Positions 45,842 through 63,865 are shown, counted from the first letter of the stretch. The stretch: DNA of 64,000 nt from a bacterium (GCA_963681965.1 OY820579.1:2528001-2592000); one strand, 5' to 3'. The notes: generated by a model from the sequence alone, not told the origin. Numbers and translations: made by a program.

Positions 45842-47570
45842 ACATAATTCTCAGTTCAGTAAGTTTATTCTTGAGTCCGTTAGTAAATATCTTCAAACTG
45901 TTGTTGTCGTCGACGACCGGATTTATGAAAAAACGAGCAGTGGTTTACCAACAGGTTTAATGGCACCACCGACAAGGAGTAGAAAAGCTGCAGTAAAAAG
46001 TGCACAAACAGAAAACGATAAAAAGAGTGCACTCGCGGGTAATTTTGTAAACTCAGAAAAATCAGAAGAAGTGTCATTTCACGATGTACAAAATAGTTTC
46101 GCTAAAAAACGTATAGTTTGTTCTTTATACCAACCTCTAAAAACTGCTTCATTCGGCGAGCAATCTGATGTCTATTGTTTATGCTCAACTGCGGATGTTG
46201 TAATTGTTGACTGGGATCTTCACGGTGATATGGGTAACAAAGCTACAATTCTGGTAGGTAGCTTAATAGAACAAAGCATGAAGGAGATTCCACATCAATT
46301 ACGGCTAGTTCTAATATACACTATGGAAGCAAACCTTCAGGCGATTGCAAGCAAAATCTATGACGATCTCGTTACACGAATCAAGAAAGAATTAATCGAC
46401 GTTGATAAAAAAAACAATGGACTTGTTCTTACAACGAAAACCGCTAGAATCGTCGTGTTGGGAAAACGTGAGAACACCGCACTGAAAGAATATGCTGATT
46501 ACTGGGTTCCAGAAAAAAAATTAGCAGAAAGAACAATATTTGAATTTTCTCATCTTGCTTCTGGTTTGTTACAAGCTATTGTGCTTCGTGGTGTTGCGAA
46601 TCTTCGAGCAAACAACCGACGTATTCTAACTAGATTCCATGAAGGTCTTGATACCGCTTTTCTTGTACATCGTGCACTAATTTTACCTGAAGAGACTTTT
46701 AGTCAGATAATTCCCTTGCTGACTGACGAACTGCGGGCAGTACTTGAAGATACTTTCGGAGAAAACCTAGTCGGGACTAATCTGATTACTGAAGGAATTA
46801 TAGCTGACTGGTGTGCAATGCGTTGGAAACCTATCAGTGACGCACAAGAGTCTTTTGGAAAGAAAAGTGATGTAAATGAGTTTGCTAAAAACGTTTTCAG
46901 TAATGGGCCAATTGTCAAGGAAAGCTACACAAATCACAATTTAGGAAAATTTAGTAGCCTTGTTGACACAAAAACGGGCTCAGATGGGATTCAGCAGTGG
47001 GGAAGTGAAAAAAAATGTTATGAACTTGCGAAATTCCTAACTGCTGGCTGTGGCGGCGATTTGAGCCATTTACAATTTAGCTCCCTCATGAGCCAAAGAA
47101 TTGCTTATCGAGATTCACGGAGAACTCTACACCTTGGTGTAATTGTTAAAGAATTGAGCCAACAGGGCCGCTACCTTCTTTGCCTCCAGCCTGTATGTGA
47201 TAGTGTTAGACTCAAAGGGAAGTTAGTACCTTTTATTTTCTGTTGTTTGGAGATTCACTCAAGTGATCATCCCGTCACTCATGTGGTGATTAATCTAAAA
47301 AATGAAATCGTTCAACTTCACTATAAACCCAAAACGACTAACTGCTTTGTCACAAGTTTCACCACTAACAAAGATTCAGTACACGCTATTTCAAATGACA
47401 ATGATGACCAGATCACTTTCGAGGATAACAAAAAAATCAAGTATGAATGGATTGCCGAGTTGAAGACCGAACATGCCCAACGTGCAGCTGAAGAGTTTGG
47501 GAGTGCCTTATCTCGAGTAGGTCTAAGCGAATCTGAGTGGTTAAGATTGAAGGCAAAACTTAAAAAATGA
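45834..47570 (+). CDS. Atypical response-regulator receiver-domain protein
   Basis: VVVVDD and VIVDWDL receiver motifs; C-terminal CLQPVCDSVR domain; GGAG RBS; overlaps kinase stop. Confidence 0.8.
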   Translation: MCEHNSQFSKFILESVSKYLQTVVVVDDRIYEKTSSGLPTGLMAPPTRSRKAAVKSAQTENDKKSALAGNFVNSEKSEEVSFHDVQNSFAKKRIVCSLYQPLKTASFGEQSDVYCLCSTADVVIVDWDLHGDMGNKATILVGSLIEQSMKEIPHQLRLVLIYTMEANLQAIASKIYDDLVTRIKKELIDVDKKNNGLVLTTKTARIVVLGKRENTALKEYADYWVPEKKLAERTIFEFSHLASGLLQAIVLRGVANLRANNRRILTRFHEGLDTAFLVHRALILPEETFSQIIPLLTDELRAVLEDTFGENLVGTNLITEGIIADWCAMRWKPISDAQESFGKKSDVNEFAKNVFSNGPIVKESYTNHNLGKFSSLVDTKTGSDGIQQWGSEKKCYELAKFLTAGCGGDLSHLQFSSLMSQRIAYRDSRRTLHLGVIVKELSQQGRYLLCLQPVCDSVRLKGKLVPFIFCCLEIHSSDHPVTHVVINLKNEIVQLHYKPKTTNCFVTSFTTNKDSVHAISNDNDDQITFEDNKKIKYEWIAELKTEHAQRAAEEFGSALSRVGLSESEWLRLKAKLKK

Positions 47571-47758
47571 TCTTACAGTAAATCAGGTCAATATTTATCA
47601 AGTAGAGCAGAGAAACTAAGAACCTTTTCCCTAAACAATGCGCGATTGCTGAATCACTCTGTTTGTATACTCTGCAAGGATGGACGAAGAAACCTAACCC
47701 ACCCCAAGCATAATCGGGCATGAAGATATTGAAAAAGGTGGAAGAATAAACTGATTTC

Positions 47759-47787
47759 TTGCAATCACAAGACACTTAATATATGTT
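47759..47787 (+). promoter_or_regulatory. Sigma70-like promoter for 62-aa gene
   Basis: TTGCAA-17nt-TATGTT, then AAGGAG RBS. Confidence 0.5.
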
Positions 47788-47818
47788 GTAACAATAACTT
47801 ACTAAAGGAGCAAACCCT

Positions 47819-48007
47819 ATGGAAGAGAAGCTTCAACTCGCGATCAATACGATTTTCGATTCTTTAATGACAGTCTGGGAAGACAACGGGAATGTAATGG
47901 CTGATGCCGTGAGAGACAGTGTTGTTACAAATCTGTCTAAGCTGACGGGAATGTCATCTGAAGAGGTCGAAGCGCAAGTTGAGTTGATGGTAAATTCAGC
48001 GCAATGA
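47819..48007 (+). CDS. Small acidic hypothetical protein (62 aa)
   Basis: Own promoter and AAGGAG RBS; amphipathic helical sequence. Confidence 0.65.
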   Translation: MEEKLQLAINTIFDSLMTVWEDNGNVMADAVRDSVVTNLSKLTGMSSEEVEAQVELMVNSAQ

Positions 48008-48114
48008 TATTTATCACTATGTTTCACCTGATTTTGTATGATGTCTGATATTGCTTTGACAGTCAGGGATTTGTTAGTGATTCCGAATGATCAGATAGTT
48101 CGGCAGATGGTCAG

Positions 48115-48266
48115 CCTGTCAGTTCCACCCATAAGCGAACAGTAAATCTTCTCAGCTATCGTAACTGTAGCCGAATCGCTTCGCGCAAAGCAACGAAGTC
48201 CGAACAGGAACTCGAAAACCATTTTTATAGAGCCTTCTGCAGAAGGCGTTTCAGGGGGAGTTGTGA
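48115..48266 (+). pseudogene. hsdS: Relic 3' end of a type I RM specificity gene
   Basis: Reads VPPISEQ*..ESLRAKQ / SEQELEN / SLLQKAFQGEL* with a stop and frameshifts; DNA closely matches 63798-63865 (AGCCTTCTGCAGAAGGCGTTTCAGGGG exact). Confidence 0.85.
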
Positions 48267-49000
48267 AACGGCTGATCGAGGATAATACTTATTTGACGAT
48301 CTCCGTACTTGAGAATGCTATCGATTCATTGGAAACTGCTGCAGCACAATTAGTGCGTTTGGATAATCTTAAATGGAAGTGGGTTGCCATTACATTACAT
48401 CACGCTTTGTACACTTTCTGCGTCGCTGCATTAACCGGAAGTAATTACGAAAATGTGTTAGGCGATGACTCAAACTGCAATTGGTGTAAAATTGGAAGTT
48501 CGGAGAAGTGGAATAGACTGTATCAAATGAAACGTCCTAAAAGTAGTGGCTATCTTATCGAATGGAAAGAAACTGACGAAGTACCGCCAGTTTTTAATGA
48601 GAAGTTGGCAGCAAGCGACAATAATAATTCCAAGAGAAGGGCAACAAATCGTAAAAAGCTCATTGGGTTTTGGACTGCCTTTGCACGAATTCAGGACGAT
48701 GTTTTCTGGATGAAGCGGTTTGTTCACTCTCGGGCAGTTGGTATTTCAAATACTGAATGGGACAACATTGAATGGCTGACCAACGAAGTCCGAAATGGTT
48801 GCGTCCACTTTATTCCAAAGTTTTTGATTATCCCGATTGTGGACATTCAGGAGGCTTGTAAAGATGTAGTTCGAATTATTGAATTCTTGGCTTTTGAGTC
48901 GAATACGATACTTTTCAATAACCATGAATCTCAAACAAAGAGAATTGCTAAAGCAATTGAGCAATTCAGTAACTACAGAGATTCCGCAGACAGCGTCTGA
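48263..49000 (+). CDS. Hypothetical protein, HEPN-like (RxxxxH)
   Basis: Helical N-terminus WKWVAITLHHAL and VRNGCVHF motif; GTG start overlaps the relic hsdS stop. Confidence 0.55.
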   Translation: MKRLIEDNTYLTISVLENAIDSLETAAAQLVRLDNLKWKWVAITLHHALYTFCVAALTGSNYENVLGDDSNCNWCKIGSSEKWNRLYQMKRPKSSGYLIEWKETDEVPPVFNEKLAASDNNNSKRRATNRKKLIGFWTAFARIQDDVFWMKRFVHSRAVGISNTEWDNIEWLTNEVRNGCVHFIPKFLIIPIVDIQEACKDVVRIIEFLAFESNTILFNNHESQTKRIAKAIEQFSNYRDSADSV

Positions 49001-49071
49001 GCAATTGAGGATTTGGAGATATCTGAGACAGTATCTCGGAAAATCGACTTTGTAGAAAGCGACGATAATCG

Positions 49072-50136
49072 ATGATTGATGAAAGTTCCAGTAGCTCCGC
49101 CCCAAAAGAATCCGAACTACTGTTTTACCAGTTGGAGGATGGTCGCACGCGGGTCGAAGTGCGTCTCGACGGGGAAACCGTCTGGCTGACTCAAGCCGCG
49201 CTTGCTGAACTATATCAAACGACCATCCCCAACATCAACATACATATTCGCAATATCTTGGACGAACGAGAGCTAGATGAATCGGCAACTATTAAGCAAT
49301 ACTTAATAGTTCGAGCAGAAGGTACTCGTCAGGTCGAGCGTCAAGTAAAGTTCTACAATTTAGAGATGATCCTTGCCGTCGGCTACCGGGTTCGATCCCC
49401 CCGTGGCACCCAGTTTCGCCGCTGGGCGACCGAGCGGTTGCGCGAGTACATCGTAAAAGGCTTTACGATGGATGATGAGCGGCTCAAGGAAGGCAAGACG
49501 CTGGGTGTCGATTACTTCGACGAGTTGTTGGAACGCATCCGCGATATCCGCGCCAGCGAGAAACGTTTTTACCAGAAAATCCGCGACCTGTTCACCCTCG
49601 CCATCGATTACGATCCGAAGTCGCTTACCACGCAGGAGTTCTTCCAAATCGTTCAGAACAAGCTACATTGGGCGGTCACCCGAATGACGGCACCGGAATT
49701 GATCGCTAGTCGCTCTGATGCTTCGAAGCCGAATATGGGGTTGACCAGTTGGAAAGGGGTAAAAGTACGCAAGGGAGATGTCACCGTTGCGAAAAATTAT
49801 CTCAATGCCGACGAAATGGGCGAGTTGAACCGCATCGTCTCACTGTACCTCGACTTCGCCGAAGACCAGACCAAACGTCGGCAGCCACTCTACATCAAGG
49901 ATTGGCGAGCAAAGCTCGATGCCTTCCTGAAATTCACCGAGCGAGAGGTTCTCGATAATCCCGGACAAGTTTCGATGGAAGTTGCACAGACGCTGGCACT
50001 GGAGCAGTACGAACAATTCCAGCAACGTCGCCTGACTGAGAAAGCATCGACAGCCTTTGCCGAGGACGCAGAGCTGGAACGCACGCAGAAACTATTGGAA
50101 TCAGGGAAAATCGGTAAAACCCGGAGGGAAAAATAA
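49072..50136 (+). CDS. rhuM: RhuM-family (virulence/DNA-binding) protein
   Basis: ETVWLTQ, YNLEMILAVGYRVRS.RGTQFR.WAT, IRDIRASEKRFYQK, VAKNYL. Confidence 0.92.
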   Translation: MIDESSSSSAPKESELLFYQLEDGRTRVEVRLDGETVWLTQAALAELYQTTIPNINIHIRNILDERELDESATIKQYLIVRAEGTRQVERQVKFYNLEMILAVGYRVRSPRGTQFRRWATERLREYIVKGFTMDDERLKEGKTLGVDYFDELLERIRDIRASEKRFYQKIRDLFTLAIDYDPKSLTTQEFFQIVQNKLHWAVTRMTAPELIASRSDASKPNMGLTSWKGVKVRKGDVTVAKNYLNADEMGELNRIVSLYLDFAEDQTKRRQPLYIKDWRAKLDAFLKFTEREVLDNPGQVSMEVAQTLALEQYEQFQQRRLTEKASTAFAEDAELERTQKLLESGKIGKTRREK

Positions 50137-50320
50137 GGCCTTCAGTTTGCTTCCAATATTGATCGCGCTAAGTTACTCATACAGTAACCTTGCGCAACCG
50201 ACACCTGCTATAATTGAGAATTTCTCAGACGACATTCCTTCTCGAATCGCTCAACTAACACTTATTTCGCACAGTATCATTTAGTATGTTAGTGTTCAGT
50301 AATAGCGTTAGTAGGATGAC

Positions 50321-51307
50321 ATGAACAAGCTCAAAATTAATCTGGTACAGTACTTACGCGATACAATCGGTGTCGAAGTGGATCTTCGAGACTGGGAGAA
50401 GTGGCGCGGGTTTCCACAGTATCTCCGGGCTCGGTATCACTACTTTATGATGACAATGCTGGGTACGGAATGTGTCCTGGTGGTTGATACTGATGAAAAG
50501 GAACAGACTCCTGCAATCATCAATAAGCAATTCGATCAGATTCGCTCTCTTCAAAATGCCACTCTCATTTATGTACGCGAGGCTGTAAGTTCTTTTAACC
50601 GTAAGCGCTTGATCGAGCATAAAGTCCCTTTTATCATACCGGGAAACCAAATGTACCTACCGATGCTTGGTATCGACTTACGAGAACATATCCGGCAAAT
50701 ACGGGAGTCTAAACCGAAGCTTAGTCCCTCTACTCAAGCGCTCATTCTATCAATACTGTGGAAAATGGAAACTGGTACAATTACTCCGACTGAAGTTGCG
50801 ACTCGACTTGGGTACTCTTTGATGACGATGACACGCGCATTCAACGAGCTGGAGCTTGCGGGTATTGGAAAGCATACGACAATGGGAAAAAGTCGTCAAT
50901 TGAAAATTGTGGAGCAAGGAAACGAGCTGTTGAATTTAGCCATGCCCTTTCTTGGTAGTCCGATTCGGAAGCAGTGTTATGTTGCCAGCAAGGACATGAT
51001 TACTTGTGAAATCTACTTAGCTGGTGAAAGCGCACTTGCTAAATACTCGATGTTGACAGAATCAACCATACCGGTGTATGCTCTTTCGTTGGAAGACTGG
51101 AAGCAGGAAAAAGTACAGAAACAAGTAATGGAGCTTACTTATCCCGAACAGGATTGCTGCGGAATCGAGATCTGGAAGTACGCTCCTGCGTTGTTTGCGC
51201 AAAATGGTGTCGTTGACCGAGTATCACTTTATTTGTCACTCATGGATAACCACGACGCACGGGTTCAAATCGCCCAGGACCAGATGATTGGTGAGATAAC
51301 ATGGTAA
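50321..51307 (+). CDS. MarR-like winged-HTH protein, type IV TA antitoxin-like
   Basis: RKRLIEHKVPFIIPGNQMYLP, YSLMTMTRA, AGESALAKYSML, VDRVSLYLSL; overlaps an MVKGLD start typical of the partner nucleotidyltransferase. Confidence 0.7.
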   Translation: MNKLKINLVQYLRDTIGVEVDLRDWEKWRGFPQYLRARYHYFMMTMLGTECVLVVDTDEKEQTPAIINKQFDQIRSLQNATLIYVREAVSSFNRKRLIEHKVPFIIPGNQMYLPMLGIDLREHIRQIRESKPKLSPSTQALILSILWKMETGTITPTEVATRLGYSLMTMTRAFNELELAGIGKHTTMGKSRQLKIVEQGNELLNLAMPFLGSPIRKQCYVASKDMITCEIYLAGESALAKYSMLTESTIPVYALSLEDWKQEKVQKQVMELTYPEQDCCGIEIWKYAPALFAQNGVVDRVSLYLSLMDNHDARVQIAQDQMIGEITW

Positions 51308-51319
51308 AAGGATTAGACA
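51247..51319 (+). repeat. 73-bp direct repeat copy 1
   Basis: Matches 51901-51973 with 2 mismatches. Confidence 0.95.
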
Positions 51320-51420
51320 GAGGACACGTCAATCTTGGATATGAATTGCTTGTTATGAGTTTACTGAAACCGTGAGTACTCTGCGATGGAAATTTGCAAA
51401 ATTTGACCGAAGGCTAATCA

Positions 51421-51510
51421 TTAATATCTCATTATGATTCATTGTGTTATGAAAAATTGCACTACGATACTCTGCGATGGAAAACTCATGAAAACGGTTG
51501 CACGTGGGGA
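51421..51510. repeat. Diverged copy of the recombinase 3'-end / att arm (matches 54061-54150)
   Basis: Shared TCTGCGATGGAAAACTCATGAAAACGGTT with ungapped flanking similarity at offset 2640; shorter third copy TACTCTGCGATGGAAA at 51377-51392. Confidence 0.9.
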
Positions 51511-51890
51511 AATTCTAAGCGAAACTTACCCTCCTCATGAAAAAAAGGCGAACTAATTTAACAGATAGCGCATGAGCTCTTTTTTAGACTTTTCCGAAAA
51601 ACATGTTTAAGTGTTTGTAATGGCAGATGTTCGATTGTTTTGCCAGTTCGTTTTCTCGCTACACTCCTGTTAAATTTGCGAGTCACTGTAATCTTGCAAA
51701 AAAGGGATTTCTTAGCAACCCTATTCTCTTCCAAGCAAAGAGCCGTCTTAGTTAACAGAAAGCGAATGAATCTTTTTTTGACTTAGTAGAGATGTTTATT
51801 TAAGAGTTTATAATTACAGATGTTCATGTTATTTCCCATTTCATTTACTTGCATAATTCCTGTTAAATTAGCGAATTTTCACAATCTTGC
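51507..51890. repeat. Two diverged tandem ~190-bp non-coding units (51507-51697, 51704-51890)
   Basis: Collinear shared blocks: GGGA..TTCT.AGC, TTAACAGA.AGCG.ATGA, TTTTT.GACTT, CAGATGTTC, TCCTGTTAAATT.GCGA, AATCTTGC. Confidence 0.8.
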
Positions 51891-51900
51891 CTTGATCGTG

Positions 51901-51973
51901 TAACCACGACGCACGGATTCAAATCGCCCAGGATCAGATGATTGGTGAGATAACATGGTAAAAGGATTAGACA
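51901..51973 (+). repeat. 73-bp direct repeat copy 2
   Basis: Matches 51247-51319. Confidence 0.95.
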
Positions 51974-52030
51974 AGTTCCGTTAGACTTTCGCGGCACACC
52001 AGCAAAACTACCTCGTCATTGGTGTGCGGC
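51955..52030 (+). pseudogene. Relic 5' end of nucleotidyltransferase (AbiEii-like) toxin
   Basis: MVKGLDKFR*TFAAHQQNYLVIG with in-frame TAG at 51982-84; similarity lost afterwards. Confidence 0.65.
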
Positions 52031-52303
52031 TTAACGGGAAGCGGATGAGTTCACACAAATCAACAACAAACACGAAGATCCTGCAGAAATCTACGATACC
52101 ACTTACTTGCTTGTTGCAAATGGTCTGACAATATTTCTGTCGTTAGACGATACGCAACACTCTTATGCCATTCAAACTAAAATCGATTTCAAGTGGTTTT
52201 GTGTTTGCTACCCTGTTTCAGGCAATCCAAGACCGTCCTCAGACTCACATGAGCATTGTCGCTTGCACCTAAGCACCATTGATACCTGCTGAACTAAGAA
52301 TAG

Positions 52304-52353
52304 AGTTGACTATCTGTTACCAATTACGTATAATAGGTAACACTTGGTCAACT
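52304..52353 (+). promoter_or_regulatory. Sigma70 promoter embedded in 50-bp imperfect palindrome (AbiEi operator)
   Basis: TTGACT (52306-11)-17nt-TATAAT (52329-34); symmetric arms AGTTGAC/GTCAACT and TGTTACC/GGTAACA about 52328.5. Confidence 0.85.
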
Positions 52354-52360
52354 GAATGTC

Positions 52361-52966
52361 ATGAGAATAGCACCCAAATCCAATATTATCATAAGTCGTC
52401 TTCGTCGCTCGGGCATTCTCCGAACAAGCGATCTAATCGCGCTTGGGGTTACTAAAGAGTATCTCAGAAAACTGGCACGCAGTGGAATAATTGAAAATGT
52501 CAGTCGCGGTCTCTACCGACTCCCTAACTCAGATGTATCGATCCACCATTCGATTGCAGTAGCTTGTAAGCAAGTGCCATCTGGAGTCATCTGTCTGCTT
52601 TCAGCCCTTCGGTTCCACAACGTGACAACCCAGAATCCGACTGCCGTCTGGATCGCAATTGGTAGAGAGACTCGTCAACCCACCATTTCTACTGTACCCA
52701 TGCGGTTCGTTAAGTCGTCTAGTAAGTTCATTTCAACCGGTGTTGAGCGTCATCGCACTGCGGATGGACAGGTACGCGTCTACTCCCTTGCCAGAACAAT
52801 TGCGGACTGTTTTAAATTTAGGAACAAGATTGGAATTGATGTAGCGGTAGAAGCTCTTCAATCCGCTCTGAAAAACCACAAAGTTGACATTGATGAGCTT
52901 TGGAAGTATGCCAAACTGAATCGGATAACGAAAATCATGACACCCTACCTAACGGTCACTGAATGA
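52361..52966 (+). CDS. abiEi: Type IV TA antitoxin AbiEi
   Basis: RGLYRL, VICLLSAL.FH, RTIADCFKFRNKIG. Confidence 0.9.
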   Translation: MRIAPKSNIIISRLRRSGILRTSDLIALGVTKEYLRKLARSGIIENVSRGLYRLPNSDVSIHHSIAVACKQVPSGVICLLSALRFHNVTTQNPTAVWIAIGRETRQPTISTVPMRFVKSSSKFISTGVERHRTADGQVRVYSLARTIADCFKFRNKIGIDVAVEALQSALKNHKVDIDELWKYAKLNRITKIMTPYLTVTE

Positions 52967-53844
52967 AAAAGCCGATTACAAATATCTCAGCATCGATCCT
53001 GCAGCGGTTGATGAACTACCGGAAAGTACGGAATGAAGAGTTCAGTGTTGTAGTATCTCGGTACATCGTCGAGCGGTTTCTTTATCGTCTTAGCATTTCG
53101 CAATTCTCGGATTCATTTGTTCTCAAGGGAGCACAACTCTTTACACTCTGGTCGGAAATCACTCCGCGTACAACCCGCGATTTGGATTTACTCCACTACG
53201 GTGATTCCAGTATTGATTCGATGGTGTCAACTATCCGACATATTTGTACTATCCCGTGTGAGGAAGATGGGGTAGAATTCCTGCTTGATACGGTCCGGGG
53301 TGAAGCTATCCGAGAGCAGGCAAACTACATCGGCGTTCGGATTCTAATGTCCTACCGAATCGGTACATTGCATGATACTCTTCAAATTGATGTCGGTTTC
53401 GGTGATGCAGTCGTTTCGCAAAAGCCAAAACAAACCGTTACGGCAATCCTAGAAAATCTTCCAGCACCAGTTCTTCTAGCATATTCGAGGGAAACTGTTA
53501 TTGCTGAAAAGTATGAAGCAATGGTCATATTGGGAATTAGGAATAGCCGGATGAAAGATTTCTTCGATATTTGGACACTTTTTTCAAAGTTTACGATTGA
53601 CGAGTCACTACTTGAGGAATCGATTCTGGCTACTTTTACCAGGCGTAATACACCTTTCCCTAAAAATACTCCACTAGCATTGGCTGAAGAGTTTGCGACG
53701 AATCCAGACAAAATGAAACAATGGTCGGCATTCCTCAAACGAACCCGTGCGACGGGCATTCCGAGTGAGTTAGAAGTGGTAATTGGGTATCTGCATGAAC
53801 GACTCGAACCTGTTCGATTGAATCTTCTCAAACGAGCCGATTGA
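52963..53844 (+). CDS. abiEii: Type IV TA toxin AbiEii (nucleotidyltransferase)
   Basis: ERFLYRLS, FVLKGA, RTTRDLD, IDVGFGD, AEKYEA, NSRMKDFFDI. Confidence 0.92.
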   Translation: MKKPITNISASILQRLMNYRKVRNEEFSVVVSRYIVERFLYRLSISQFSDSFVLKGAQLFTLWSEITPRTTRDLDLLHYGDSSIDSMVSTIRHICTIPCEEDGVEFLLDTVRGEAIREQANYIGVRILMSYRIGTLHDTLQIDVGFGDAVVSQKPKQTVTAILENLPAPVLLAYSRETVIAEKYEAMVILGIRNSRMKDFFDIWTLFSKFTIDESLLEESILATFTRRNTPFPKNTPLALAEEFATNPDKMKQWSAFLKRTRATGIPSELEVVIGYLHERLEPVRLNLLKRAD

Positions 53845-54073
53845 CTTCATTCGGGTTCACCATTTCGGAAGAAATACTCCAAAAACTTCGCAGATTAATC
53901 CCGACCCTGGCTCTCTACTCAAGACATAAAATGACTGCCAGCGTATTCACTTCGTTAACCATGACAAAGCATGAATTCCAAATTGTACTGGAGTGTTAGT
54001 TAACAGTTTGAGAGTGCTCCCGCTGTTAACCGAGAATAAATTTTTGGAAAGCGTAGATTGTTTATTTCTCGTT

Positions 54074-55819
54074 TTAATACCTTATGTTGTAAAAATGAGC
54101 CCTTCGATATTCTGCGATGGAAAACTCATGAAAACGGTTACACCCGGGGAGCCCTAATAGTCCGACTTGATTCAAATCAGGTCGGGCTATTTTTTTGTTT
54201 TGCGCATCGAGTTCCACCTCCACCCGCGTCTTCTTTGCCATCGGGGGCTTCAGCGTTTTTCCGGTCGTCAGCTTGGGAATCCGCATGTTGATCCGTGCGA
54301 TGGATTCATCGATTATTTCGATGCTCTCAACGAAATGAATTACCACCATCCGCAATCTCTCGAAAGGTATTGTTTCCGCTTCTGAGTCGAAGTTTCTAAT
54401 CAATTTTCGACAGATATCGAGATCCCGTTTCAACGCTTCTGTGAGGATTTCCACATTGTATTTCTGCTTGAATTCTGCATCCAGAAACCGCTTTTCACGT
54501 TGTAATTCATCAATCTTCACCTTGCATGTTTCCACGTCCATTCCAGCGCCAATTGCATCGTAGTAGCGTTCGATACTGATACTAAGCTCTTTCAAGCGTT
54601 CTGCCAACCGTTGCTCCTCGCCACTCTTGCCGGCTTTTAATTCCATTAACTTCGCCTGGATGGATTGCTCAATTTCATCGAGTCGTCCGGGTTTCGCGAT
54701 TTCATGCTGGATGGCCCTTAGGACGGCGCTTTCCAGAAAATCCTTGTCAATATAGAATGAACCGCATTTACACTCTTTCTGATTGATGTAACCAGAGCAC
54801 ACATAACGCTTTAGCATGTATTCGATGCGTTCGTTTTCGAGTTTACTGACCTTCTTTCTCCGGATTCCTACGTATGCTTGACCGCATTTACCACAGCGAA
54901 TAATCTTAGATAAGAGCCACTCTTCCTTCTGGGTAACTGTCGGGAAAGCCTTGCCAATGTTGCCTGCAGCCATGGCTTTGCGACGGAAGTACATTTCCTT
55001 GCTCACAATAGGATCGTGGGTGTTCTCAACAATCATCCATTCGCTTTCAGGGCGCTGCTTGTGGGACTTGGAGTTAGTGCGGTTCCAGACTGTGGCACCG
55101 TAGTACACCGGGTTATTCAAGTACTGACCGATTCTCTGCTTACACCACGGTTTTCCACTGGCCGTCACGATACCTTCAGCGGTTAATCGATTTACGATCG
55201 CCTTAGCCCCGAGACCATCATTGGTGGCCCATTCGAAGATTTTACGGATGGTTGCTACTTCCATGGGATCACCTAGAGCCAGCTTTTTATGCACCCTGTC
55301 GCCAATACCAGGCACATCGATCTTGGTGTAGCCGTAAGGCACACTCCCACCATTTAAGAAGCCGCGTGAGGCATTCTCCGCCATTCCCTTGCGGGTTTCC
55401 ATCGAGAGGTTCATCGAGTAAAACTGGTTGATCACTTCGATGATTCCTTCGAAGAGAAAGCCCGACGGGGTATCCGAGTCAAAGCTCTCGCACAGGGATT
55501 TTACTGATACACCGTACTTGTTTAGTAAGGACTTGAAGATGACGGATTCTTCACGATTTCGCGAGAAGCGATCCAGTTTATGTACCAGGATGAATTTGAC
55601 ATTGTTCTCCTTGGCAAAACTGATCATTTCCATGAAGCCGCGACGCTTATCAGCGGATGCATACGCCGATACACCCTCATCCTTGAACATCTGCAATAGC
55701 TGCATCTCTGGCTGATCATTCACGTACTTTTCGATGGCTTTGATCTGGGCCGGAATGGAGAGATCCTTCTGTGCCTGATCTTCCGATGAAACTCGCGCAT
55801 AACCTACGACTCGAACCAT
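54074..55819 (-). CDS. Large serine recombinase/integrase (resolvase, recombinase, Zn ribbon, coiled coil)
   Basis: GYARVSS, KLDRFSRN, PYGY, CGKCG...YVC...C; AGGAGG RBS on minus strand. Confidence 0.95.
   Translation of the reverse strand: MVRVVGYARVSSEDQAQKDLSIPAQIKAIEKYVNDQPEMQLLQMFKDEGVSAYASADKRRGFMEMISFAKENNVKFILVHKLDRFSRNREESVIFKSLLNKYGVSVKSLCESFDSDTPSGFLFEGIIEVINQFYSMNLSMETRKGMAENASRGFLNGGSVPYGYTKIDVPGIGDRVHKKLALGDPMEVATIRKIFEWATNDGLGAKAIVNRLTAEGIVTASGKPWCKQRIGQYLNNPVYYGATVWNRTNSKSHKQRPESEWMIVENTHDPIVSKEMYFRRKAMAAGNIGKAFPTVTQKEEWLLSKIIRCGKCGQAYVGIRRKKVSKLENERIEYMLKRYVCSGYINQKECKCGSFYIDKDFLESAVLRAIQHEIAKPGRLDEIEQSIQAKLMELKAGKSGEEQRLAERLKELSISIERYYDAIGAGMDVETCKVKIDELQREKRFLDAEFKQKYNVEILTEALKRDLDICRKLIRNFDSEAETIPFERLRMVVIHFVESIEIIDESIARINMRIPKLTTGKTLKPPMAKKTRVEVELDAQNKKIARPDLNQVGLLGLPGCNRFHEFSIAEYRRAHFYNIRY
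54158..54196 (+). terminator. Rho-independent terminator on + strand, inside the 3' coding end of the recombinase
   Basis: TAGTCCGACTTGAT-TCAA-ATCAGGTCGGGCTA 14-bp stem (2 G-U) followed by T7. Confidence 0.8.
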
Positions 55820-55945
55820 TTTATCCTCCTTGCTATCCCAGTAGTAATGGCAATCACTATGCCACGATTCCAGGTGCGATTTAGTGGTTCGAAGTTACAC
55901 GAACGTTCCGCAGAATCAAGTCCAGTCTGCATGCCCCCCGAATCG

Positions 55946-56259
55946 AGTTAGTAACCCTGCAAAGCGAAAAGTGCTTAATATGATCACTTATAGGGTTACT
56001 AACTACCAAAATGGTGATCAAAATGATCACTCAGGGTAACTAACGGTGACCATAATGCTCATTTTGCTGTAAAACTGGGTTACTAACTACTTCCGGAGGA
56101 TTTCTTGAAGAGAATTTGAAGTAACCTTGCATCTCAAAACGATACTCATATTGCTCACCCTGTATAGGTTTGGATGAGCAGAATGATCATTTCTAGGGTT
56201 ACTAACTGGCTAGCTGCTATTCAATTTGCTCACCCTGCTCGAAATTAGGGTTACTATCG
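55946..56259. repeat. Interleaved array of a 13-bp motif (AGGGTTACTAACT) and a 17-bp palindrome (GTGATCA-N3-TGATCAC)
   Basis: Motif A at 55946 (inverted), 55992, 56033, 56076, 56195, 56247; motif B at 55971, 56014, 56046, 56142, 56174, 56217. Confidence 0.9.
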
Positions 56260-56475
56260 TTTCTCACTGCTTTCTATCTACTGAATAATCCATTAGTTAC
56301 ATCATTCATCAGACTTCGGCATACCTATTGCGTTAACCGGTATCGTCGTGATTCCGCACGATGAATCCAGTTGAAAATGGAGAACAATGAACCAGCCACA
56401 TAATCTTCGTTTTGAAGTCGTGCAGTCACCGAATGCGAGTGTTGCCGAAGAACATGCAGCAATAAATGTGCTGGC

Positions 56476-57849
56476 AAACAGGAGAGTTTCCCCCGGATCG
56501 CGATCTCAGTCGATATGCTGGACACCGGTGTTGACATCCCCGAAGTTGTAAACCTCGCATTTATGAAACCGGTCAGTTCGTATGTGAAATTCTGGCAAAT
56601 GATCGGTCGCGGTTCCCGGAACAACGAAACCTGCAAGCAGCACTCTTGGCTCCCCAACGGGAAAAAAGAACGCTACCTGATCATCGACTACTGGGAGAAT
56701 TGGGGAGATACACTGCGGAAGAACCGCCGCAAGGAACCAACTCAAATCCCAGTATTGGTAACAATCCTCACCACTCGAATCAAAAAACTCGAGTTGTTGC
56801 TTGCCGACCAGACCGACTCGGCTTTTGTGCGGATCGTAGCAGATTTGCGGCGGGAGCTTGAGCATATTCCGCAGACATCCTTCTCGGTTCAGAAAGCATG
56901 GAGCGAAGTCAAGGATGCCTGGGAGGATGATTTCTGGCGATACTTGACTGCAGACAAACTAGACTTCCTGCAGATGAAGGTTGCACCGTTGCTACGCTTC
57001 GCTGTCGACGTGAACCCTGACGAGGCGTTTTTCATCAGCAAGATGGAGCGTCTCGGTTTATTGCTGCTGCAGCGCAAGGATATGGCGAAACAGATCGAAT
57101 CGATACGCGAGGATGTAGCGCGGCTTCCCACCAACCTATCGCAAGTCGATGAACAAAGACAGCAGGTCGATTTCGTACTTTCCAATGCGTTTGGACAACC
57201 CCAGTCGCTTGCAGCGATTGACGAGACCAAAGCGGCTCTCGCCCCGTTGATGAAGTACCGGAAAGATCGCCCTTCAAACGTCATCGAGCTGGGACTTGAC
57301 GATGTAATTCAATCTCGACACTGGTGTATCGTCCAGAATGGCGACCAGCGCATTTACGTCGAGGAATACAAGCGACTGGTCGAGGAACGGGTACTCGCGC
57401 TTGCAGAAAACCACCCGACGATTAAGAAACTGAAAGCCGGTGGCGACATCACAACCGACGATCTAGTGAGCTTGGAACAGACACTCACCACGGAATTACA
57501 ATCCGATGAAGTATCGTTGTTCGACGATAACATGGAGAAGGCGTTCGGTGTTCGCGTCGGTAGTCTGGTCGATTTCATTCGACACGTTTTGAATCTAGAG
57601 AAACTTCCGACTCGAGAGAGTATCATCGGGGCGGCGTTCGATGCATTTGTGCTGGAGCATAACTTCAATGCCGACCAGAGCCGCTTTCTGCGGGCGGTAC
57701 GGGTTGTGTTCAAGGAACGGAAGAAGATCACGCTCGAAGACTTGTACGACGAACCGTTCACCAACTTCGGAGCGAATGCTGTCGAGAAACTCTTTAGCCA
57801 GCAGGAAATTGACGAGTTGCTGCAGTTGACAGGCGGGTTGGCGGCGTAG
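56476..57849 (+). pseudogene. hsdR: 5'-truncated type I restriction subunit (EcoEI R C-terminal type)
   Basis: Begins at KQESFPRIAISVDMLDTGVDIP and QMIGRG.R (late helicase motifs); nuclease and Walker A/B regions absent. Confidence 0.88.
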
Positions 57850-57861
57850 TAAAAGGAGATT

Positions 57862-60800
57862 ATGGTGGCAGATCTAAAGATGATTACCGATAGACCTAGC
57901 TTTAAAGGTGTTGGTCACTCCGATGCAGACGCATTCAATCATAGGGTGATTGCTGATTCTATCCTAGAAATCCTCGAAAAAAATGACCCTCCAATGACCA
58001 TCGGTTTGTTTGGTGGGTGGGGGGTTGGAAAATCATCAATCATGAATCTCATCGAATCGCTCCTTGATCGGGACAAGTATGCCTATGTCTATTTCAATGC
58101 TTGGAAATACTCAGGTGATTCGTTTAGACGAGAGTTCCTATTGACTGTTGCAAGATCGGAAGAGATAATCAAGAGCAAATCGGAACGTGAATCCAAAGTC
58201 AACGAGCTGAGTACACTTAGTCACACTTCGATTCTTAAAAAACCAAAAGAGACAATTTCGATATCGAAGTCGGGTGTAATTCAATCCTCAGCTTTCATCG
58301 TTCTAGCAACAATTGCCACCTACCTTCTTATTAGTGGTGGTGAAGTAAAAAGTTTACCAACGATGGGTAGCGGAATATTTGCGTTGGTAGTCAGCCTTGT
58401 TGTTTTATTTCTAAATCAAGTTAAACAGATAATCAAAGTCGATGTAGACAACTCACAAGATCCGAAACTTATCTTCCCTGAGCAATTTGTAGAAAAGTTT
58501 AAAGAATTAGTCAACATAGCAAGCAAAAATAAACCTTCACGCAAATTGGTGTTCGTTATCGATGATTTAGATCGTTGTGAAATCGATATGATCAATTCAG
58601 TTCTCGTTTCATTGAAAAACTTTTTTGAAGTTGATCGTTGCTGTTTTATTGTGCCAATGGACGATTCCTCAGTTGTTCAAATGTTTTCAGCCAAAAATAC
58701 GAACATTGGTTACGAGCAGTTAAGAAAATATTTCTCTGTATCAATACGAATCCCAGTTTTTCACAATGAAGATATTGTTCTCTTCGCAAAGGAAACAGCA
58801 AAAAAATACAATATCTCTCAAAATGTTGCGTATTTAGCGGCAAAAGGGTACTGCAAAGATGCCCGGAAGATGAAACACTTCCTAAACTTATTTATGATCA
58901 AAAGAGCTATTGCCGTTGCACGACACACCCAAGGATATTTGGGTGAGTTAGATGTTAGCAAACTTGAACCCCAGATTGCCAAACTTACAGTTTTAGAGTA
59001 CCAGTATCCAGAGTTTTACAGAGTTATAACCGAGAACCCGGAGTACTTGAACCGATTCACAAATGCTGCGCGCGGACATGAAGAAAATCTTAGCGAAAGC
59101 GAGATACTGTGCGAGTTCTCAGAATCCAAAGACGGGAAGATTTCGATCAATGATGTTTGGAAAAAATACCGTGGGTTGAGAAAGTTCTTGGCTGAAACTT
59201 ACCAAATCGAGATTATAGATTTAGACACACTTGCGAAGCTAAAAACAACGGAACAAGTCACTAGACTCGGTTCAATTGGTTCAAAACTTAGTCGAGCAGT
59301 TACCGAGAATGAGTTTCACTTCGAAGAATTTCTGACTGCAGATTCTGTTCAAGGAAAGGATGAAGCAATTGTTGATACGCTTCAAGCTTCAATAGATGAT
59401 GATCTAGAGCTAGTTACAAGGCGCGTTATTGAAATAGCGCACTACTTATTGATAAATAAAATGTTAATTGCTGAGGAACATAAGAGATTATTTATTGATG
59501 TCACTAGAGTCATCACTTCGAAAACGTTGGATTTTAAACTTCAAATCGAGGATTTGAGTTTTTACCTTAACGAGTCGCCACAGTTGAGCGAATCATTACA
59601 TGACGACATTCTCAGTAAAGTGCAGAGTACTCTCCTTTCACAAGATTCATACACTGACGCTGTTTGGGAAGTCATCAACCATCCCGAATTTTTTAGTCGC
59701 GCTCGGAATGACTCAAATCAATTCAATACTTCCCTTGAACGGTGGCTACAAGAAGTTTTTGATAACCCAGTACGACTGCTCAGTTTCCTTAAAGGTCTGA
59801 ACTCACTTCGATTGACGAAGGGTGAGCGTAAGAACGCAGGATTGGTTGTTCCTTCTGCTGTGCTTGAACACCAACTTGTGTCTCGGATATCGGGTGACGA
59901 CACCGAAATGTTAAACCAAATCAATGACGAACTATATAAGTTATTCCTTAATCCCAACAACGCGGGTGAGTTTACTTCTGACGATACGCTTGATTCGACT
60001 TTAGTGCGAATTCTCAAAGACCTGCTATCTAGGAATGCGGAAACCGAAGGATTCACTCGTTGTGCTGATTTCGTTCTTCGGTTGCCCCGCGAATTGCATT
60101 CAGATCAAGCTTTAAAGTTGTCAAGGTTCTTAACAAATCAACCAATTGAAGAAGAGGAGGAAGTGAGTTCTGAACCAGTTATTGTGGAAAACACACCATT
60201 GGTATTATGTCTCCTTCTTCGGTGTTTACCAAGACTATCTGAAACCCAATCTAAATCAGAAATAGAATTCGTCGAGGGCGTTTACAGTTGCTCTTCGACA
60301 GAACTTCAAGCAGTAATCGATCTGATAAATTCATACTCTTATTTACAAAACGAGTATACATGCAAGCTTCTGAACCAAGGAGTCACTAAAAAGTGGCAGT
60401 GGGTAAAAGACAACTTCCAGACTCTGCACAAAGAAACGGATCTCTTACCCTTTGCAAGAATTTGCCAGTCCTACTTGGGAAATATAGACATAGAGGTTAA
60501 ATCTTTCGTTCAGCAGCTTTTGTCTCTATCGGAGGTGGAACAACTCCAACATGCAACTAATTACATCGTCGAAAAAGCACGAGAATTTGGCGAACCATTT
60601 ATTATCGAATGCATTACGGCAGTAACGAGCAATATTTCGAATCAAGAGCTACCTATTGATTGCCGAACCATCTACATCGACCTCTACAACGCTCTCTTGA
60701 ACCTGATTCCGAGTGAAAGAAGAGGTAATACCTTTGACGAGTTGGTTGCCACTATCCAAATCGATGATTTTGATCTATTGCCAATTTTCACCGAGAAGTT

Positions 60801-61242
60801 CGAACCTTTACGGAGCACAGTAGGTCGTGGGTTGCTTCAACCCCAGCAACGTATTTTCCTCGAAGCAATTGTAAACGATGAGACGAACGACCTTTCGCAG
60901 TATTCTACCTTTTTTAACACTTGTCTACTAAATGGAAAACTATCCCCTGAAAGTTCAACTACACTCGCACGTAGAATTATGAATGAACTACCCCTGTCTG
61001 AAAAAAGTGAGGGGCATCGGATGTTGTTACTCGAACTCACGAATGAAATTACCGCAATGAGTGATGACAAAAAAGATGATTTGTCACAGACGCTATACTA
61101 TTATAAAGATACCGGAGATAATCCCCAATTAAGGGGGAAGGCACATGAGATCAATGAGATGTTGATTTCGAACGGCACAATACGCCGGTATTCACCTCCA
61201 CCACCACCTCCGCCATCTGAAGCAACAACTGAGGAAGCTTAA
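57862..61242 (+). CDS. KAP-family P-loop NTPase with two TM helices and long helical C-terminus
   Basis: GGWGVGKSS, FNAWKY, two hydrophobic segments, FVIDDLDRC, YEQLRKYF, R.MKHFLN; AAGGAG RBS. Confidence 0.92.
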   Translation: MVADLKMITDRPSFKGVGHSDADAFNHRVIADSILEILEKNDPPMTIGLFGGWGVGKSSIMNLIESLLDRDKYAYVYFNAWKYSGDSFRREFLLTVARSEEIIKSKSERESKVNELSTLSHTSILKKPKETISISKSGVIQSSAFIVLATIATYLLISGGEVKSLPTMGSGIFALVVSLVVLFLNQVKQIIKVDVDNSQDPKLIFPEQFVEKFKELVNIASKNKPSRKLVFVIDDLDRCEIDMINSVLVSLKNFFEVDRCCFIVPMDDSSVVQMFSAKNTNIGYEQLRKYFSVSIRIPVFHNEDIVLFAKETAKKYNISQNVAYLAAKGYCKDARKMKHFLNLFMIKRAIAVARHTQGYLGELDVSKLEPQIAKLTVLEYQYPEFYRVITENPEYLNRFTNAARGHEENLSESEILCEFSESKDGKISINDVWKKYRGLRKFLAETYQIEIIDLDTLAKLKTTEQVTRLGSIGSKLSRAVTENEFHFEEFLTADSVQGKDEAIVDTLQASIDDDLELVTRRVIEIAHYLLINKMLIAEEHKRLFIDVTRVITSKTLDFKLQIEDLSFYLNESPQLSESLHDDILSKVQSTLLSQDSYTDAVWEVINHPEFFSRARNDSNQFNTSLERWLQEVFDNPVRLLSFLKGLNSLRLTKGERKNAGLVVPSAVLEHQLVSRISGDDTEMLNQINDELYKLFLNPNNAGEFTSDDTLDSTLVRILKDLLSRNAETEGFTRCADFVLRLPRELHSDQALKLSRFLTNQPIEEEEEVSSEPVIVENTPLVLCLLLRCLPRLSETQSKSEIEFVEGVYSCSSTELQAVIDLINSYSYLQNEYTCKLLNQGVTKKWQWVKDNFQTLHKETDLLPFARICQSYLGNIDIEVKSFVQQLLSLSEVEQLQHATNYIVEKAREFGEPFIIECITAVTSNISNQELPIDCRTIYIDLYNALLNLIPSERRGNTFDELVATIQIDDFDLLPIFTEKFEPLRSTVGRGLLQPQQRIFLEAIVNDETNDLSQYSTFFNTCLLNGKLSPESSTTLARRIMNELPLSEKSEGHRMLLLELTNEITAMSDDKKDDLSQTLYYYKDTGDNPQLRGKAHEINEMLISNGTIRRYSPPPPPPPSEATTEEA

Positions 61243-62774: not shown

Positions 62775-63865
62775 AACAAGAATTCATTAAAATCAGCGAT
62801 TTGTGTAAGTTCGAGTATGGCGACAGCCTTCCCGCTCGAACAAGAAACACGGGAAGTGTCCCTGTCTATGGTTCGAACGGTATCGTTGGATTCCACGACA
62901 GTGCTGTGACTTCAGGAGAAACAATAATTGTTGGGAGAAAAGGTTCGGTTGGTGAAGTTCATTACTCGCCAGTTGCCTGTTTTCCTATTGACACGACTTA
63001 CTACATTTCACGAACGCTAAAAAAGTGCTCACTTAAATGGTTGTATTTCATTTTGAAAAGTTCCGGAATGACTGAGATGAATAAAGCGTCAGCAGTACCG
63101 GGTTTGAACAGAAACGATGCATACGATGTCAAAATCCACTATCCCCCACTACCCGAGCAGGAGCGCATCGCGGCGATCTTGGAGAAGGCAGATGCGGCTC
63201 GTGCCAAACGCCGCCAAGCCAATGCCCTGACTGAGGAGTTCCTCCAGTCCGCTTTCATCGACCTCTTCGGCGATCCCGCCACTAATCCGAAAGGATGGAA
63301 GACAAAACCTCTAGGGTCATTGTGTGACATTAGACGCGGCGCATCACCTAGACCAATAAAAGAATTTCTGGGCGGAACCATTCCTTGGATAAAAATTGGT
63401 GATGGTTCGCAAGGTGGTTCTATTTTCCTATCATCGACAGCAGAACACATAATCGAGTCAGGTCAATCCAAAAGTGTGTTCGTACCTGAAGGTTCGTTGA
63501 TTTTTGCTAACTGCGGTGTGAGCTTAGGATTTGCTAGGATTCTCAAAATTTCTGGTTGCATTCACGACGGTTGGTTAGCATTTAGCAATTATTCAAACGA
63601 ACTAAATCCCTTGTTTTTACTCGCGACAATCAATGAGTTGACGGGGTATCTTAGAGGGATTGCCCCTTCAGGAACTCAACCCAATTTGAATACTTCGATC
63701 ATGAAAAATCTGCAGATTCCGCTACCACCCGTCAAAATGCAGTCCAACTACGCTGAAACAATGATTCAAATCGAAAACCTACGAACTAAGCAACTTCAGT
63801 CCGAGCAGGAACTCGAGAACCTGTTCCAAAGCCTTCTGCAGAAGGCGTTTCAGGGGAAGTTGTAA
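62771..63865 (+). CDS. hsdS: Type I RM specificity subunit
   Basis: Two TRDs with PPLPEQERIA, FGDPATNPKGW and SLLQKAFQGKL conserved regions. Confidence 0.95.
   Translation: MKQEFIKISDLCKFEYGDSLPARTRNTGSVPVYGSNGIVGFHDSAVTSGETIIVGRKGSVGEVHYSPVACFPIDTTYYISRTLKKCSLKWLYFILKSSGMTEMNKASAVPGLNRNDAYDVKIHYPPLPEQERIAAILEKADAARAKRRQANALTEEFLQSAFIDLFGDPATNPKGWKTKPLGSLCDIRRGASPRPIKEFLGGTIPWIKIGDGSQGGSIFLSSTAEHIIESGQSKSVFVPEGSLIFANCGVSLGFARILKISGCIHDGWLAFSNYSNELNPLFLLATINELTGYLRGIAPSGTQPNLNTSIMKNLQIPLPPVKMQSNYAETMIQIENLRTKQLQSEQELENLFQSLLQKAFQGKL

Follow-up and report, generated by a model that had tools for sequence, protein, structure and literature searches.

Large serine recombinases (LSRs) catalyse recombination between attP and attB at a central dinucleotide and need a recombination directionality factor (RDF) for excision. 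In the textbook cases, phiC31, Bxb1, A118, TP901-1 and SprA of SPbeta, attP lies outside the open reading frame (ORF) of the integrase gene (int) and the targets are protein genes. The CcrAB serine recombinases of SCC and SCCmec insert at the 3' end of rlmH, where tandem composites, repeated attachment (att) cores and integrase-less pseudo-elements are found. Integrons associate a tyrosine recombinase, IntI, with an attI site and with promoterless cassettes bounded by attC sites and served by a common promoter. SSV-type archaeal integrases are also tyrosine recombinases, and the int gene of SSV1 is split in two by its own attP; in mycobacteriophage BPs, which encodes a tyrosine integrase, integration changes the repressor functionally. 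Here we analysed LSR#1, an LSR encoded on the reverse strand of a 64,000-nucleotide (nt) stretch of a bacterial genome (GCA_963681965.1 OY820579.1:2528001-2592000). This whole stretch is called the window below and positions are counted from its first letter. Inspection of the sequence alone (the original prediction) had pointed to repeated att-like arms overlapping the 3' end of this gene. They had been interpreted as the footprint of a tandem accretion of islands, with a crossover inside the recombinase gene and with the defence genes on the left forming an integron-like array run by LSR#1.

The passages of McMurdie et al. (2011, PMC3146451) devoted to the ssrA islands of Dehalococcoides describe a serine integrase gene, dsiB, on the reverse strand beside attL, the 3' end of which always overlaps attL, with a stop codon provided only by ssrA or by the adjacent island and with divergent C-termini. 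According to the same passages, these islands are arranged in tandem and bounded by direct repeats of the target 3' end, some of them lack integrases, a short conserved motif stands just upstream of each repeat, and the question is raised whether the dsiB tail matters. In the integration-dependent immunity of phage BPs (PMC4557955), attP is located inside the repressor gene. The layout given by McMurdie et al. for dsiB is also that of LSR#1, whose ORF overlaps the att site at its 3' end and meets a stop codon only in the target or in the neighbouring DNA.

We propose, with a probability of roughly 0.7, that LSR#1 is the integrase of a phage-type element targeting tRNA-Asn, that its C-terminal tail is read from the DNA context, and that the arms are the right ends of neighbouring elements stacked at the same site. 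The element, of temperate-phage type, would insert into the 3' end of tRNA-Asn, and the last 50 or so codons of the LSR#1 gene would carry in antisense both the attachment core CCCGGGGAGCC and a terminator replacing that of the tRNA. Because no stop codon is present ahead of the core, the ORF always runs on into the neighbouring DNA: with the element directly at the tRNA, the tail would be antisense tRNA, and with a neighbour inserted between them, it would be the right end of this neighbour. In the present genome, the element would be reduced to a stump comprising the terminator, the integrase, an operator-like region and a break at a truncated hsdR gene. A later composite, made of a prophage and a defence island, would have pushed this stump 86.7 kb away from tRNA-Asn. 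On the tRNA side it would begin with a distinct left end (L-type), contain its own pair of DUF2924 and LSR#3 genes and end in the second copy of the D1 arm, the two copies of the 11-nt core being its direct repeats. The first D1 copy, with half a core, would be an older junction inside the composite, and the 2.6 kb between the two arms would be what remains of one more element whose integrase was lost.

LSR#1 displays both domain features of serine integrases, namely a catalytic N-terminus (Pfam Resolvase PF00239, 4.8e-31, residues 4-153) and the combination of a Recombinase domain (PF07508, 1.7e-24), a zinc ribbon (Zn_ribbon_recom PF13408, 1.6e-12) and a long helical insert. In the AlphaFold2 (AF2) model, long helices are predicted with low confidence at residues 359-481, as in the coiled-coil insert. 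The catalytic-motif residues Y7, R9, V10, S11, S12 and Q15 are invariant across 22 aligned homologues. No RDF was identified for LSR#1.

Out of 631 homologues, the 22 closest (53-80% identity) were compared with LSR#1, forming a set of 23 proteins. These homologues are conserved through the pattern KPPMAKKTR..KKxSPxxNQV[RG]xxxLP and carry unrelated tails beyond, the divergence point being located exactly after GGCTCCCCG. In LSR#1 the conserved part ends with NQVGLLGLPG, at about residue 556, and the last 25 residues come from the neighbouring arm. The 23 tails could be organised into antisense tRNA T-arms (3 proteins, reading for instance LPGRDLNPQPSG or LPGTDSNRQPIG), CNxxH (5, including LSR#1), NNW..YLGNG (3), [EA]WS followed by a stop (4) and others (8). 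The CNxLH tails of the close homologues P0003-5 and P0007 are the same kind of sequence as the second D1 copy. At the DNA level, a regular expression requiring GSCTCCCC was run on 138 loci and caught 9 distinct junctions, all made of a common A-run, a hairpin and GGCTCCCC(G), followed by complete divergence. Two loci of a single metagenome-assembled genome (L003 and L004) have the same sequence up to the junction and differ past it. Among the 72 homologue loci scanned, 6 have a convergent tRNA touching or overlapping the end of the ORF; it is a tRNA-Asn in L041, L076, L121, L034 and L036 and a tRNA-Lys in L019. Only 3 homologue loci were found in viral contigs, none of them informative beyond L006.

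ARAGORN detected 47 tRNAs in the genome, a single contig of 4.24 Mb, among which there is one tRNA-Asn, on the + strand at genome positions 2495393-2495467. It is located 32.6 kb left of the window start, no tRNA being present within the window, and ends with TCTCTCCCGGGGAGCC. The 11-mer CCCGGGGAGCC has only two copies in the genome, either strand considered: the end of this tRNA-Asn (genome 2495457, window -32543) and window position 54143, at a distance of 86.7 kb. The intervening DNA is thereby flanked by an intact tRNA-Asn at one end and by a direct repeat of the tRNA 3' end at the other. Sequence comparison places the crossover somewhere within this 11-mer. Relatives have only the tRNA itself in common with the source genome; the flank differs in a genome of the same genus (G001), and synteny is too weak to delimit an empty site.

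Right after the core comes the strongest terminator-like site of the region, with a stem of 16 pairs at 54156-54191 and the tail TTTTTGTTTT. The hairpin is kept across 10 distinct relatives: 95.8% of the cells of its stem are paired and compensatory changes affect 4 of 12 pairs, a covariation score reached by 0 of 500 shuffles. Seen from the opposite strand, the conserved end block of the LSR genes consists of the tRNA 3' end CGGGGAGCC, then a short spacer, then an intrinsic terminator. The apparently conserved protein motif KKxxPxxNQV is thus the shadow of this terminator.

A genome of a sister genus (G003) provides the most direct comparison. On its contig C89, flank genes syntenic with those of the source genome precede a tRNA-Asn. 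Directly after this intact tRNA, the bases are identical to window 54143-54200 and lead into an LSR gene sharing 92% nucleotide identity with that of LSR#1 over 1946 nt, for about 99% protein identity. The two tails part at the core: NQVGLLGLPG is followed by RDSNSQPIG and a stop in G003, which is antisense tRNA, and by CNRFHEF in LSR#1. Because the core sits within the gene, as seen from this comparison and from the family-wide divergence at GGCTCCCCG, the tail is written by its context. Past the LSR, G003 contains operator-like repeats similar to those at 55935-56260, with a homology to our window running to 56088, and then phage replication and structural genes. From this gene order, the terminator, the core and the LSR constitute the left end of a phage-type element extending on the recombinase side, and the G003 locus is the attL form of the element of LSR#1. 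Since LSR#1's own element extends to the right from this end, neither the arms nor the AbiE cassette belong to it. The phage genes of G003 are 72% identical to those of the prophage found at window -23267 to -5948, on the left of LSR#1 in the present genome. No match to window 49000-54142 was detected in G003 or G001.

On the right of LSR#1, the region upstream of the gene (55820-56415) holds non-coding repeats only, followed by the hsdR fragment. The GGGTTACTAAC-type repeats amount to about 10 motif matches, the sole such cluster in the genome. They are probably operators, in a region of the decayed prophage to which LSR#1 belongs; in the G003 prophage, similar repeats stand before the early genes. 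The hsdR fragment aligns from residue 512 of a paralogue of 928 amino acids (aa), the first 510 or so codons being gone. It marks where the remainder of LSR#1's element was lost, so that this element is a stump. The N-terminal half of hsdR is found nowhere in the genome, and hsdR was for this reason dropped as a candidate insertion target. The surrounding type I restriction locus (window 56416-63865) contains a gene for a 1126-aa KAP-family NTPase between the R fragment and intact hsdM and hsdS genes.

On the left, the 86.7 kb separating tRNA-Asn from the core begin with a hairpin-terminator, GTTAAC and a second hairpin, a left end of the L-type. An AAA_15/RNA-ligase cassette comes next, then DUF2924 and LSR#3, then phage replication, head, tail and lysis genes, and finally LSR#2 with ParB/RepB, several defence systems, RhuM, a winged helix-turn-helix (wHTH) gene and the arms. 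LSR#3 is 22% identical to LSR#1. Searching with an L-type profile built from other genomes only, the best genome-wide match was located right after the genome's own tRNA-Asn (E 0.021). Another locus (L200) presents the succession of a right-end module, a core, an L-type end, DUF2924 and an LSR 56% identical to LSR#3. We infer an order of insertions in which LSR#1's element came first and the left-hand composite later, brought in by an enzyme of the LSR#3 type. Tandem accretion at tRNA-Asn is supported by these data. The idea of successive insertions at one site consequently stands as far as stacking at tRNA-Asn is concerned; the stacked units are elements with their own ends and not, as first thought, cassettes of one enzyme.

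Several other observations concern this left-hand DNA. Left of the window, at genome 2495475-2498749, the 250 or so nt that follow tRNA-Asn and a piece of 73-194 nt located 2.8 kb further on have a second occurrence, close together, at 2155683-2156117; genome 2635973-2636165 belongs to the same set of repeats. The cassette formed by AAA_15, an unknown gene and the RNA ligase therefore looks inserted between the two pieces at the tRNA locus. A Fic/DOC-family gene is found on the minus strand (window 13779-14789) inside the + strand tail/baseplate block of the prophage, and a HigB-like toxin gene just left of the window (L055:19020-19307). Window 26462-47570 comprises LSR#2 (27172-28755) with ParB-like, RepB-like and IrrE/HTH genes, followed by a defence island encoding an SNF2/NOV_C helicase, a DUF1156 methylase, DUF499, a C5 methylase and an HATPase/HEF_HK protein with its Response_reg_2 partner.

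To find arms in other genomes, a degenerate pattern made from the arm, the core and the CNxLH tails was searched in species genomes of many phyla. The right-end sequence ATGAAGAGGGTTGCACA followed by CGGGGAGCC was found in at least 120 stretches, often at contig ends, and 80 loci (L163-L242) of these at least 120 matches were fetched. In all 80, a block of about 120-135 nt (median about 116 nt; for example L195:4892-5026) ends with GGTTATGAAGAGGGTTGCACA and CGGGGAGCC, the flank diverging right after the core. Past the block, the flanks are mostly host-specific terminators; 7 of the 80 show the L-type left end of a next element, one (L235) an LSR whose tail reads the block and which is 24% identical to LSR#1, and one (L240) a P'-type hairpin. 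A tRNA-Asn lies 1.8-4.9 kb upstream on the same strand in 4 loci, whose cargo is integrase-less and includes chrAB, PIN, a methyltransferase and, in L242, AbiEi/AbiEii. In both L242 and L174 an AbiEi/AbiEii pair stands beside a right end of this kind, and homologues of RhuM and AbiE recur near the blocks. From these flanks and cargo, the block can be assigned as the right end of tRNA-Asn elements, and it is probably a protein-binding DNA end. A structured RNA was considered and rejected: RNAalifold yielded 5 invariant pairs only, and 12 of 12 blocks folded no better than shuffles (z from -0.77 to +1.41, one strand being folded). Rfam-type RNA families were found neither in the window nor in 12 module loci, a relaxed threshold giving one match at chance level. 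The D1 arm shares only the last 19 or so nt of the block and the core (window 54125-54153, a diverged end).

The D1 repeat itself spans 90 nt with 79% identity according to the repeat finder (51421-51510 and 54061-54150) and includes a 35-nt core at 97% identity in blastn (51465-51499 and 54105-54139). A shorter family, D5 (TAYTCTGCGATGGAAA), has 3 exact copies starting at 51377, 51468 and 54108; the copy at 51377 could be what is left of a third arm. Chance is far from accounting for an exact 16-mer together with a 35-mer that differs at one position, both inside 3 kb. The likeness between the two D1 copies ends past GGGGA, at 51510 and 54150. On the minus strand, the first copy is translated as PTCNRFHEFSIAEYRSA and the tail of the recombinase gene as LPGCNRFHEFSIAEYRRAHFYNIRY. 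No additional copy of the D1 arms was detected in the genome by blastn, and the exact 28-mer of the D1 core had 0 matches in 185,579 species genomes. Right of the first copy there is no recombinase remnant (51511-51900 compared with 54151-54700, z = -0.4), and the L-type profile gave no match following it. This copy, which has the P-type half-site and half a core, is either an older junction whose right partner was deleted or a secondary-site junction. Two other origins were tried and discarded. The arms as debris of a paralogous recombinase gene conflict with the lack of coding remnant right of the first copy and with the arms being located across the core from the recombinase. The arms could also have ended a gene of the + strand (the frame CDGKLMKTV.. 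is open), but they have no ORF upstream, and in other genomes these bases do not code.

On several counts the original prediction was well founded: the recurrence of the arms at the recombinase C-terminus up to GGGGA, with a shorter copy at 51377-51392, a + strand terminator right after the 11-mer and a tRNA of matching end left of the window were all recovered, the last as the sole tRNA-Asn. The search that it suggested for further arm copies in the genome returned none beyond the window. Its central proposal, a crossover within the recombinase gene with a C-terminus set by the junction partner, agrees with the tail swap in G003 and with the divergence of the homologues after GGCTCCCCG; the close homologues share no single fixed C-terminus.

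From left to right, the order of the features is D2, about 100 nt, D1, U2, U3, D2, AbiEi, AbiEii, D1, core, terminator and recombinase (Table 1). The two D2 copies are 97% identical over 73 nt (repeat finder), the wHTH ORF that contains most of the first one having weak Pfam matches to HTH_24/MarR. Given the presence of the second D2 copy, the AbiE segment formerly had the same right-end layout of wHTH gene, spacer and arm. A single recent duplication is unlikely because the divergences of D1 (79%) and D2 (97%) are too unequal. AbiEi and AbiEii, a type IV toxin-antitoxin/abortive-infection pair with a promoter-like site at 52306-52334, are the cargo of the 2.6-kb integrase-less segment between the arms. 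This segment would be a decayed element, kin of its left neighbour, deprived of its left part and integrase. U2 and U3 align with a score of 86, against 17.3 +/- 2.4 for shuffles (z = 28), and each includes TTAACAG and a T-run. They have no match elsewhere in the genome, and Tandem Repeats Finder and Rfam gave no result for them. Two further units, U1 and U4, were rejected as kin of U2/U3, their z being only 1.4-2.6 and the z of 6.0 for U1-U2 an artefact of overlapping query ranges. Two RhuM genes (window 49072-50136 and 65823-66875, the latter right of the window) encode proteins 81% identical, a LexA-like S24 gene follows the second one, and another AbiEi/AbiEii pair with a LexA-like gene is located at window +104246.

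Table 1. Positions of the features around LSR#1, counted from the first letter of the window
Feature	Position	Strand	Description
D2 copy 1	51247..51319	+	final 61 nt of wHTH gene 50321-51307 and 12 nt past it
Short arm copy	51377..51392	+	16-nt exact match to arm core, TACTCTGCGATGGAAA (family D5)
D1 copy 1	51421..51510	+	degenerate half core CGTGGGGA at 51503-51510, then unrelated DNA
U2, U3	51530..51905	+	two tandem non-coding units of about 180 nt, about 75% alike
D2 copy 2	51901..51973	+	orphan 3' end of wHTH gene
AbiEi	52361-52966	+	Pfam AbiEi_4 5.4e-11
AbiEii	52963-53844	+	Pfam AbiEii 2.2e-40
D1 copy 2	54061..54142	+	right end of left-hand element; about 19 nt at core (TCATGAAAACGGTTACACC) = P-type half-site
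LSR#1	54074..55819	-	large serine recombinase, 581 aa, intact (Pfam)
Core	54143..54153	+	CCCGGGGAGCC, copy of tRNA-Asn 3' end (acceptor strand, discriminator, CC)
Spacer and terminator	54154..54200	+	intrinsic terminator for tRNA-Asn transcript (P' side); antisense encodes KKIARPDLNQVGLLG of LSR#1
GGGTTACTAAC-type repeats	55935..56260		direct and inverted repeats D3, D4, D7, I2, I5; upstream of LSR#1
hsdR fragment	56416..57849	+	C-terminal 477 codons; Pfam EcoEI_R_C; frame open from 56416

Public sequencing data were inspected for traces of recombination. The contigs of four public runs showed no joint at either arm over 47000-59000, but contigs drop rare forms and are silent on activity; likewise no circle or deletion junction was seen in the public assemblies, which cannot show its absence. 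One run (X12) contains one 11-kb skip with only 21 letters on one side. The public assemblies break at D2 and at the RhuM duplicate. In run X9, the mean contig depths are 26.9, 23.4 and 21.9 left of 51964 and 14.5 for a 14.6-kb contig starting from 51944 rightwards; this step might reflect extra copies of the left-hand prophage in the culture, or nothing, contig depth being a poor measure.

Several points weigh against the proposed stacking of elements at tRNA-Asn with a context-read tail. The attR of the G003 prophage was not found, which leaves the true P arm of LSR#1 unplaced; the 6 other CCGGGGAGCC sites of G003 were considered as candidates and have no arm-like flank. The link between D1 and the right-end module is circular because the roughly 28 nt at the core on which it rests were used to build the search pattern. 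Moreover, the nhmmer extension of this match is weak (E 2.8e-5 in the window), and BLAST with the canonical block found nothing in this genome or G003 and one weak 22-nt match among 31 genomes of the phylum. In the first D1 copy, GGGGA is not followed by GCC, and the right flank of this copy has no match. The disorder predicted for the tail is weak evidence since the AF2 model is poor overall (mean predicted local distance difference test, pLDDT, of 62). Finally, serine integrases are not, to our knowledge, expected to use attL as a target, so that the entry of a second element between the tRNA and LSR#1 is unexplained.

One alternative is a single permuted prophage, in which the second D1 copy, the core and the terminator would form the intact attP of LSR#1. 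The entire left-hand phage and LSR#1 would then be one element, its entry into the chromosome having occurred through another site or enzyme, with no stacking at 54143. P-type sequence is indeed present past the core in close homologues (CNxLH tails, 5 of 23), the module is joined directly to a P'-type flank in L235 and L240, the phage of G003, which has this integrase too, shares 72% identity with the left-hand phage, and cargo beside attP is the usual phage layout. We nevertheless consider it unlikely: the 86.7 kb stretch precisely from one to the other of the two sole copies of the 11-mer, their left end is of the L-type with its own DUF2924 and LSR pair, the operator region right of LSR#1 leads into a truncated hsdR and not into phage early genes, and the + strand is devoid of any tRNA-end motif from 54154 to 75195.

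The stacking model takes the tail of LSR#1, unconserved, with arbitrary stops among homologues and a pLDDT below 30, for a by-product that would have no function of its own. A designed switch would instead make the alternative tails functional and the activity or stability of the enzyme dependent on its state, LSR#1 running an integron-like array of cassettes. That the tail provably differs between two near-identical enzymes is in its favour, and in one tail class (LPEWGTLDQNNWY..IPLPKYLGNG, or NNWF..LPxYLGNG) amino-acid similarity is kept over about 35 residues (L080, L081, L003; P0008, P0009, P0023), so the tail of this class may be functional in some lineages. The integration-dependent immunity of phage BPs (PMC4557955) offers a precedent, and the passages of McMurdie et al. 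(PMC3146451) raise the same idea for dsiB. The switch is very unlikely in our opinion, as the tails vary in length and sequence and it is the terminator and the tRNA end of the other strand that impose the last conserved residues. The array of the original prediction does not hold either: the arms and AbiE lie outside LSR#1's element, the left-hand DNA has an L-type end with DUF2924 and LSR#3, no integron features were seen, and what is stacked are elements, complete or decayed, each having ends of its own, and not promoterless units at one attI. As for a plain segmental duplication, in which unequal homologous recombination or slippage would have doubled the block from D2 to D1 around the AbiE operon without site-specific recombination, the conserved order of D2 and D1, the 97% identity of D2, the lack of integrase remnant between the copies and the assembly breaks at D2, an active repeat for assemblers, do not compensate for a D1 likeness stopping exactly at the core that the homologues and G003 define as an element boundary, for the gap between 79% and 97% identity, for unrelated D2-D1 spacers and for the same arm-core arrangement in other genomes, which make it highly improbable.

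An extension of the stacking model would regard the P-type half-site as a docking end common to distant tRNA-Asn serine integrases, LSR#1, LSR#3 and the L235 enzyme being 22-34% identical to one another. The orphan LSR#1 could then mobilise its 86.7-kb neighbour without a directionality factor, which we think quite unlikely. If true, every junction between elements of the stack would be a complete attP-like site, LSR#1 could recombine the junction at 54125-54175 with the tRNA-Asn site, and a tail read from the neighbour or from the tRNA would report, and perhaps tune, the integration state.

The same enzyme, at about 99% identity, bearing two tails in two genera is a clean natural comparison that pins the core to 11 bases of tRNA-Asn, and part of what looks like a conserved C-terminus is the tRNA end and the terminator read backwards. 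Gene callers and integrase catalogues trusting the annotated stop codon would mis-assign both the C-terminus and the att site. Stacking would explain the pile-up of defence genes (AbiE, RhuM, restriction systems) beside one tRNA, and the widespread, unnamed right-end sequence of tRNA-Asn elements could serve as an island-boundary marker.

Compared with other described systems, LSR#1 resembles the large serine integrases of phages by its Resolvase, Recombinase and Zn-ribbon architecture, its small core and its attP next to int. A tRNA target with the element-borne tRNA end and terminator in antisense within int was not found described by a full-text literature search, which is no proof of absence. 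With SCC and SCCmec, which McMurdie et al. also discuss, the locus has in common the use of serine recombinases, a single-copy gene whose 3' end is the insertion point, and composites in tandem that are bounded by repeated att cores and include integrase-less pseudo-elements. It differs in that Ccr needs two proteins, the ccr genes lie inside the SCC element and not across att, the SCCmec target is not a tRNA and SCC elements are not prophages. As in BPs and SSV, attP lies inside a gene of the element and integration alters the protein, but in LSR#1 only the non-conserved tail is changed. The row of several cargo units at one recombination hotspot recalls integrons, whereas the stack described here comprises elements, complete or decayed, that bring ends and integrases of their own, and the arms are not attC-like hairpins; a scan of the window ORFs of 110 aa or more and of the flanks gave no match to tyrosine-recombinase families. 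In relation to the DsiB islands, as far as the cited passages describe them, the target is tRNA-Asn instead of tmRNA and the repeat is 11 nt long instead of 20. The six-gene DsiB module (dsiB, the small serine recombinase dsiA, a recF-like gene, parB and mom with an embedded tRNA-like gene) was not found here, and no small DsiA-like partner, ParB or mom module adjoins LSR#1. Unlike these islands, the element is of phage type, judging from G003, and elements with two kinds of left end and distant LSRs (22-34% identity) use one site. The principle has been in print since 2011 for tmRNA islands, and the gain here is in extent and detail rather than in kind, the useful details being the swap of tails between two genera, the terminator lying in antisense and the wide occurrence of the right-end block.

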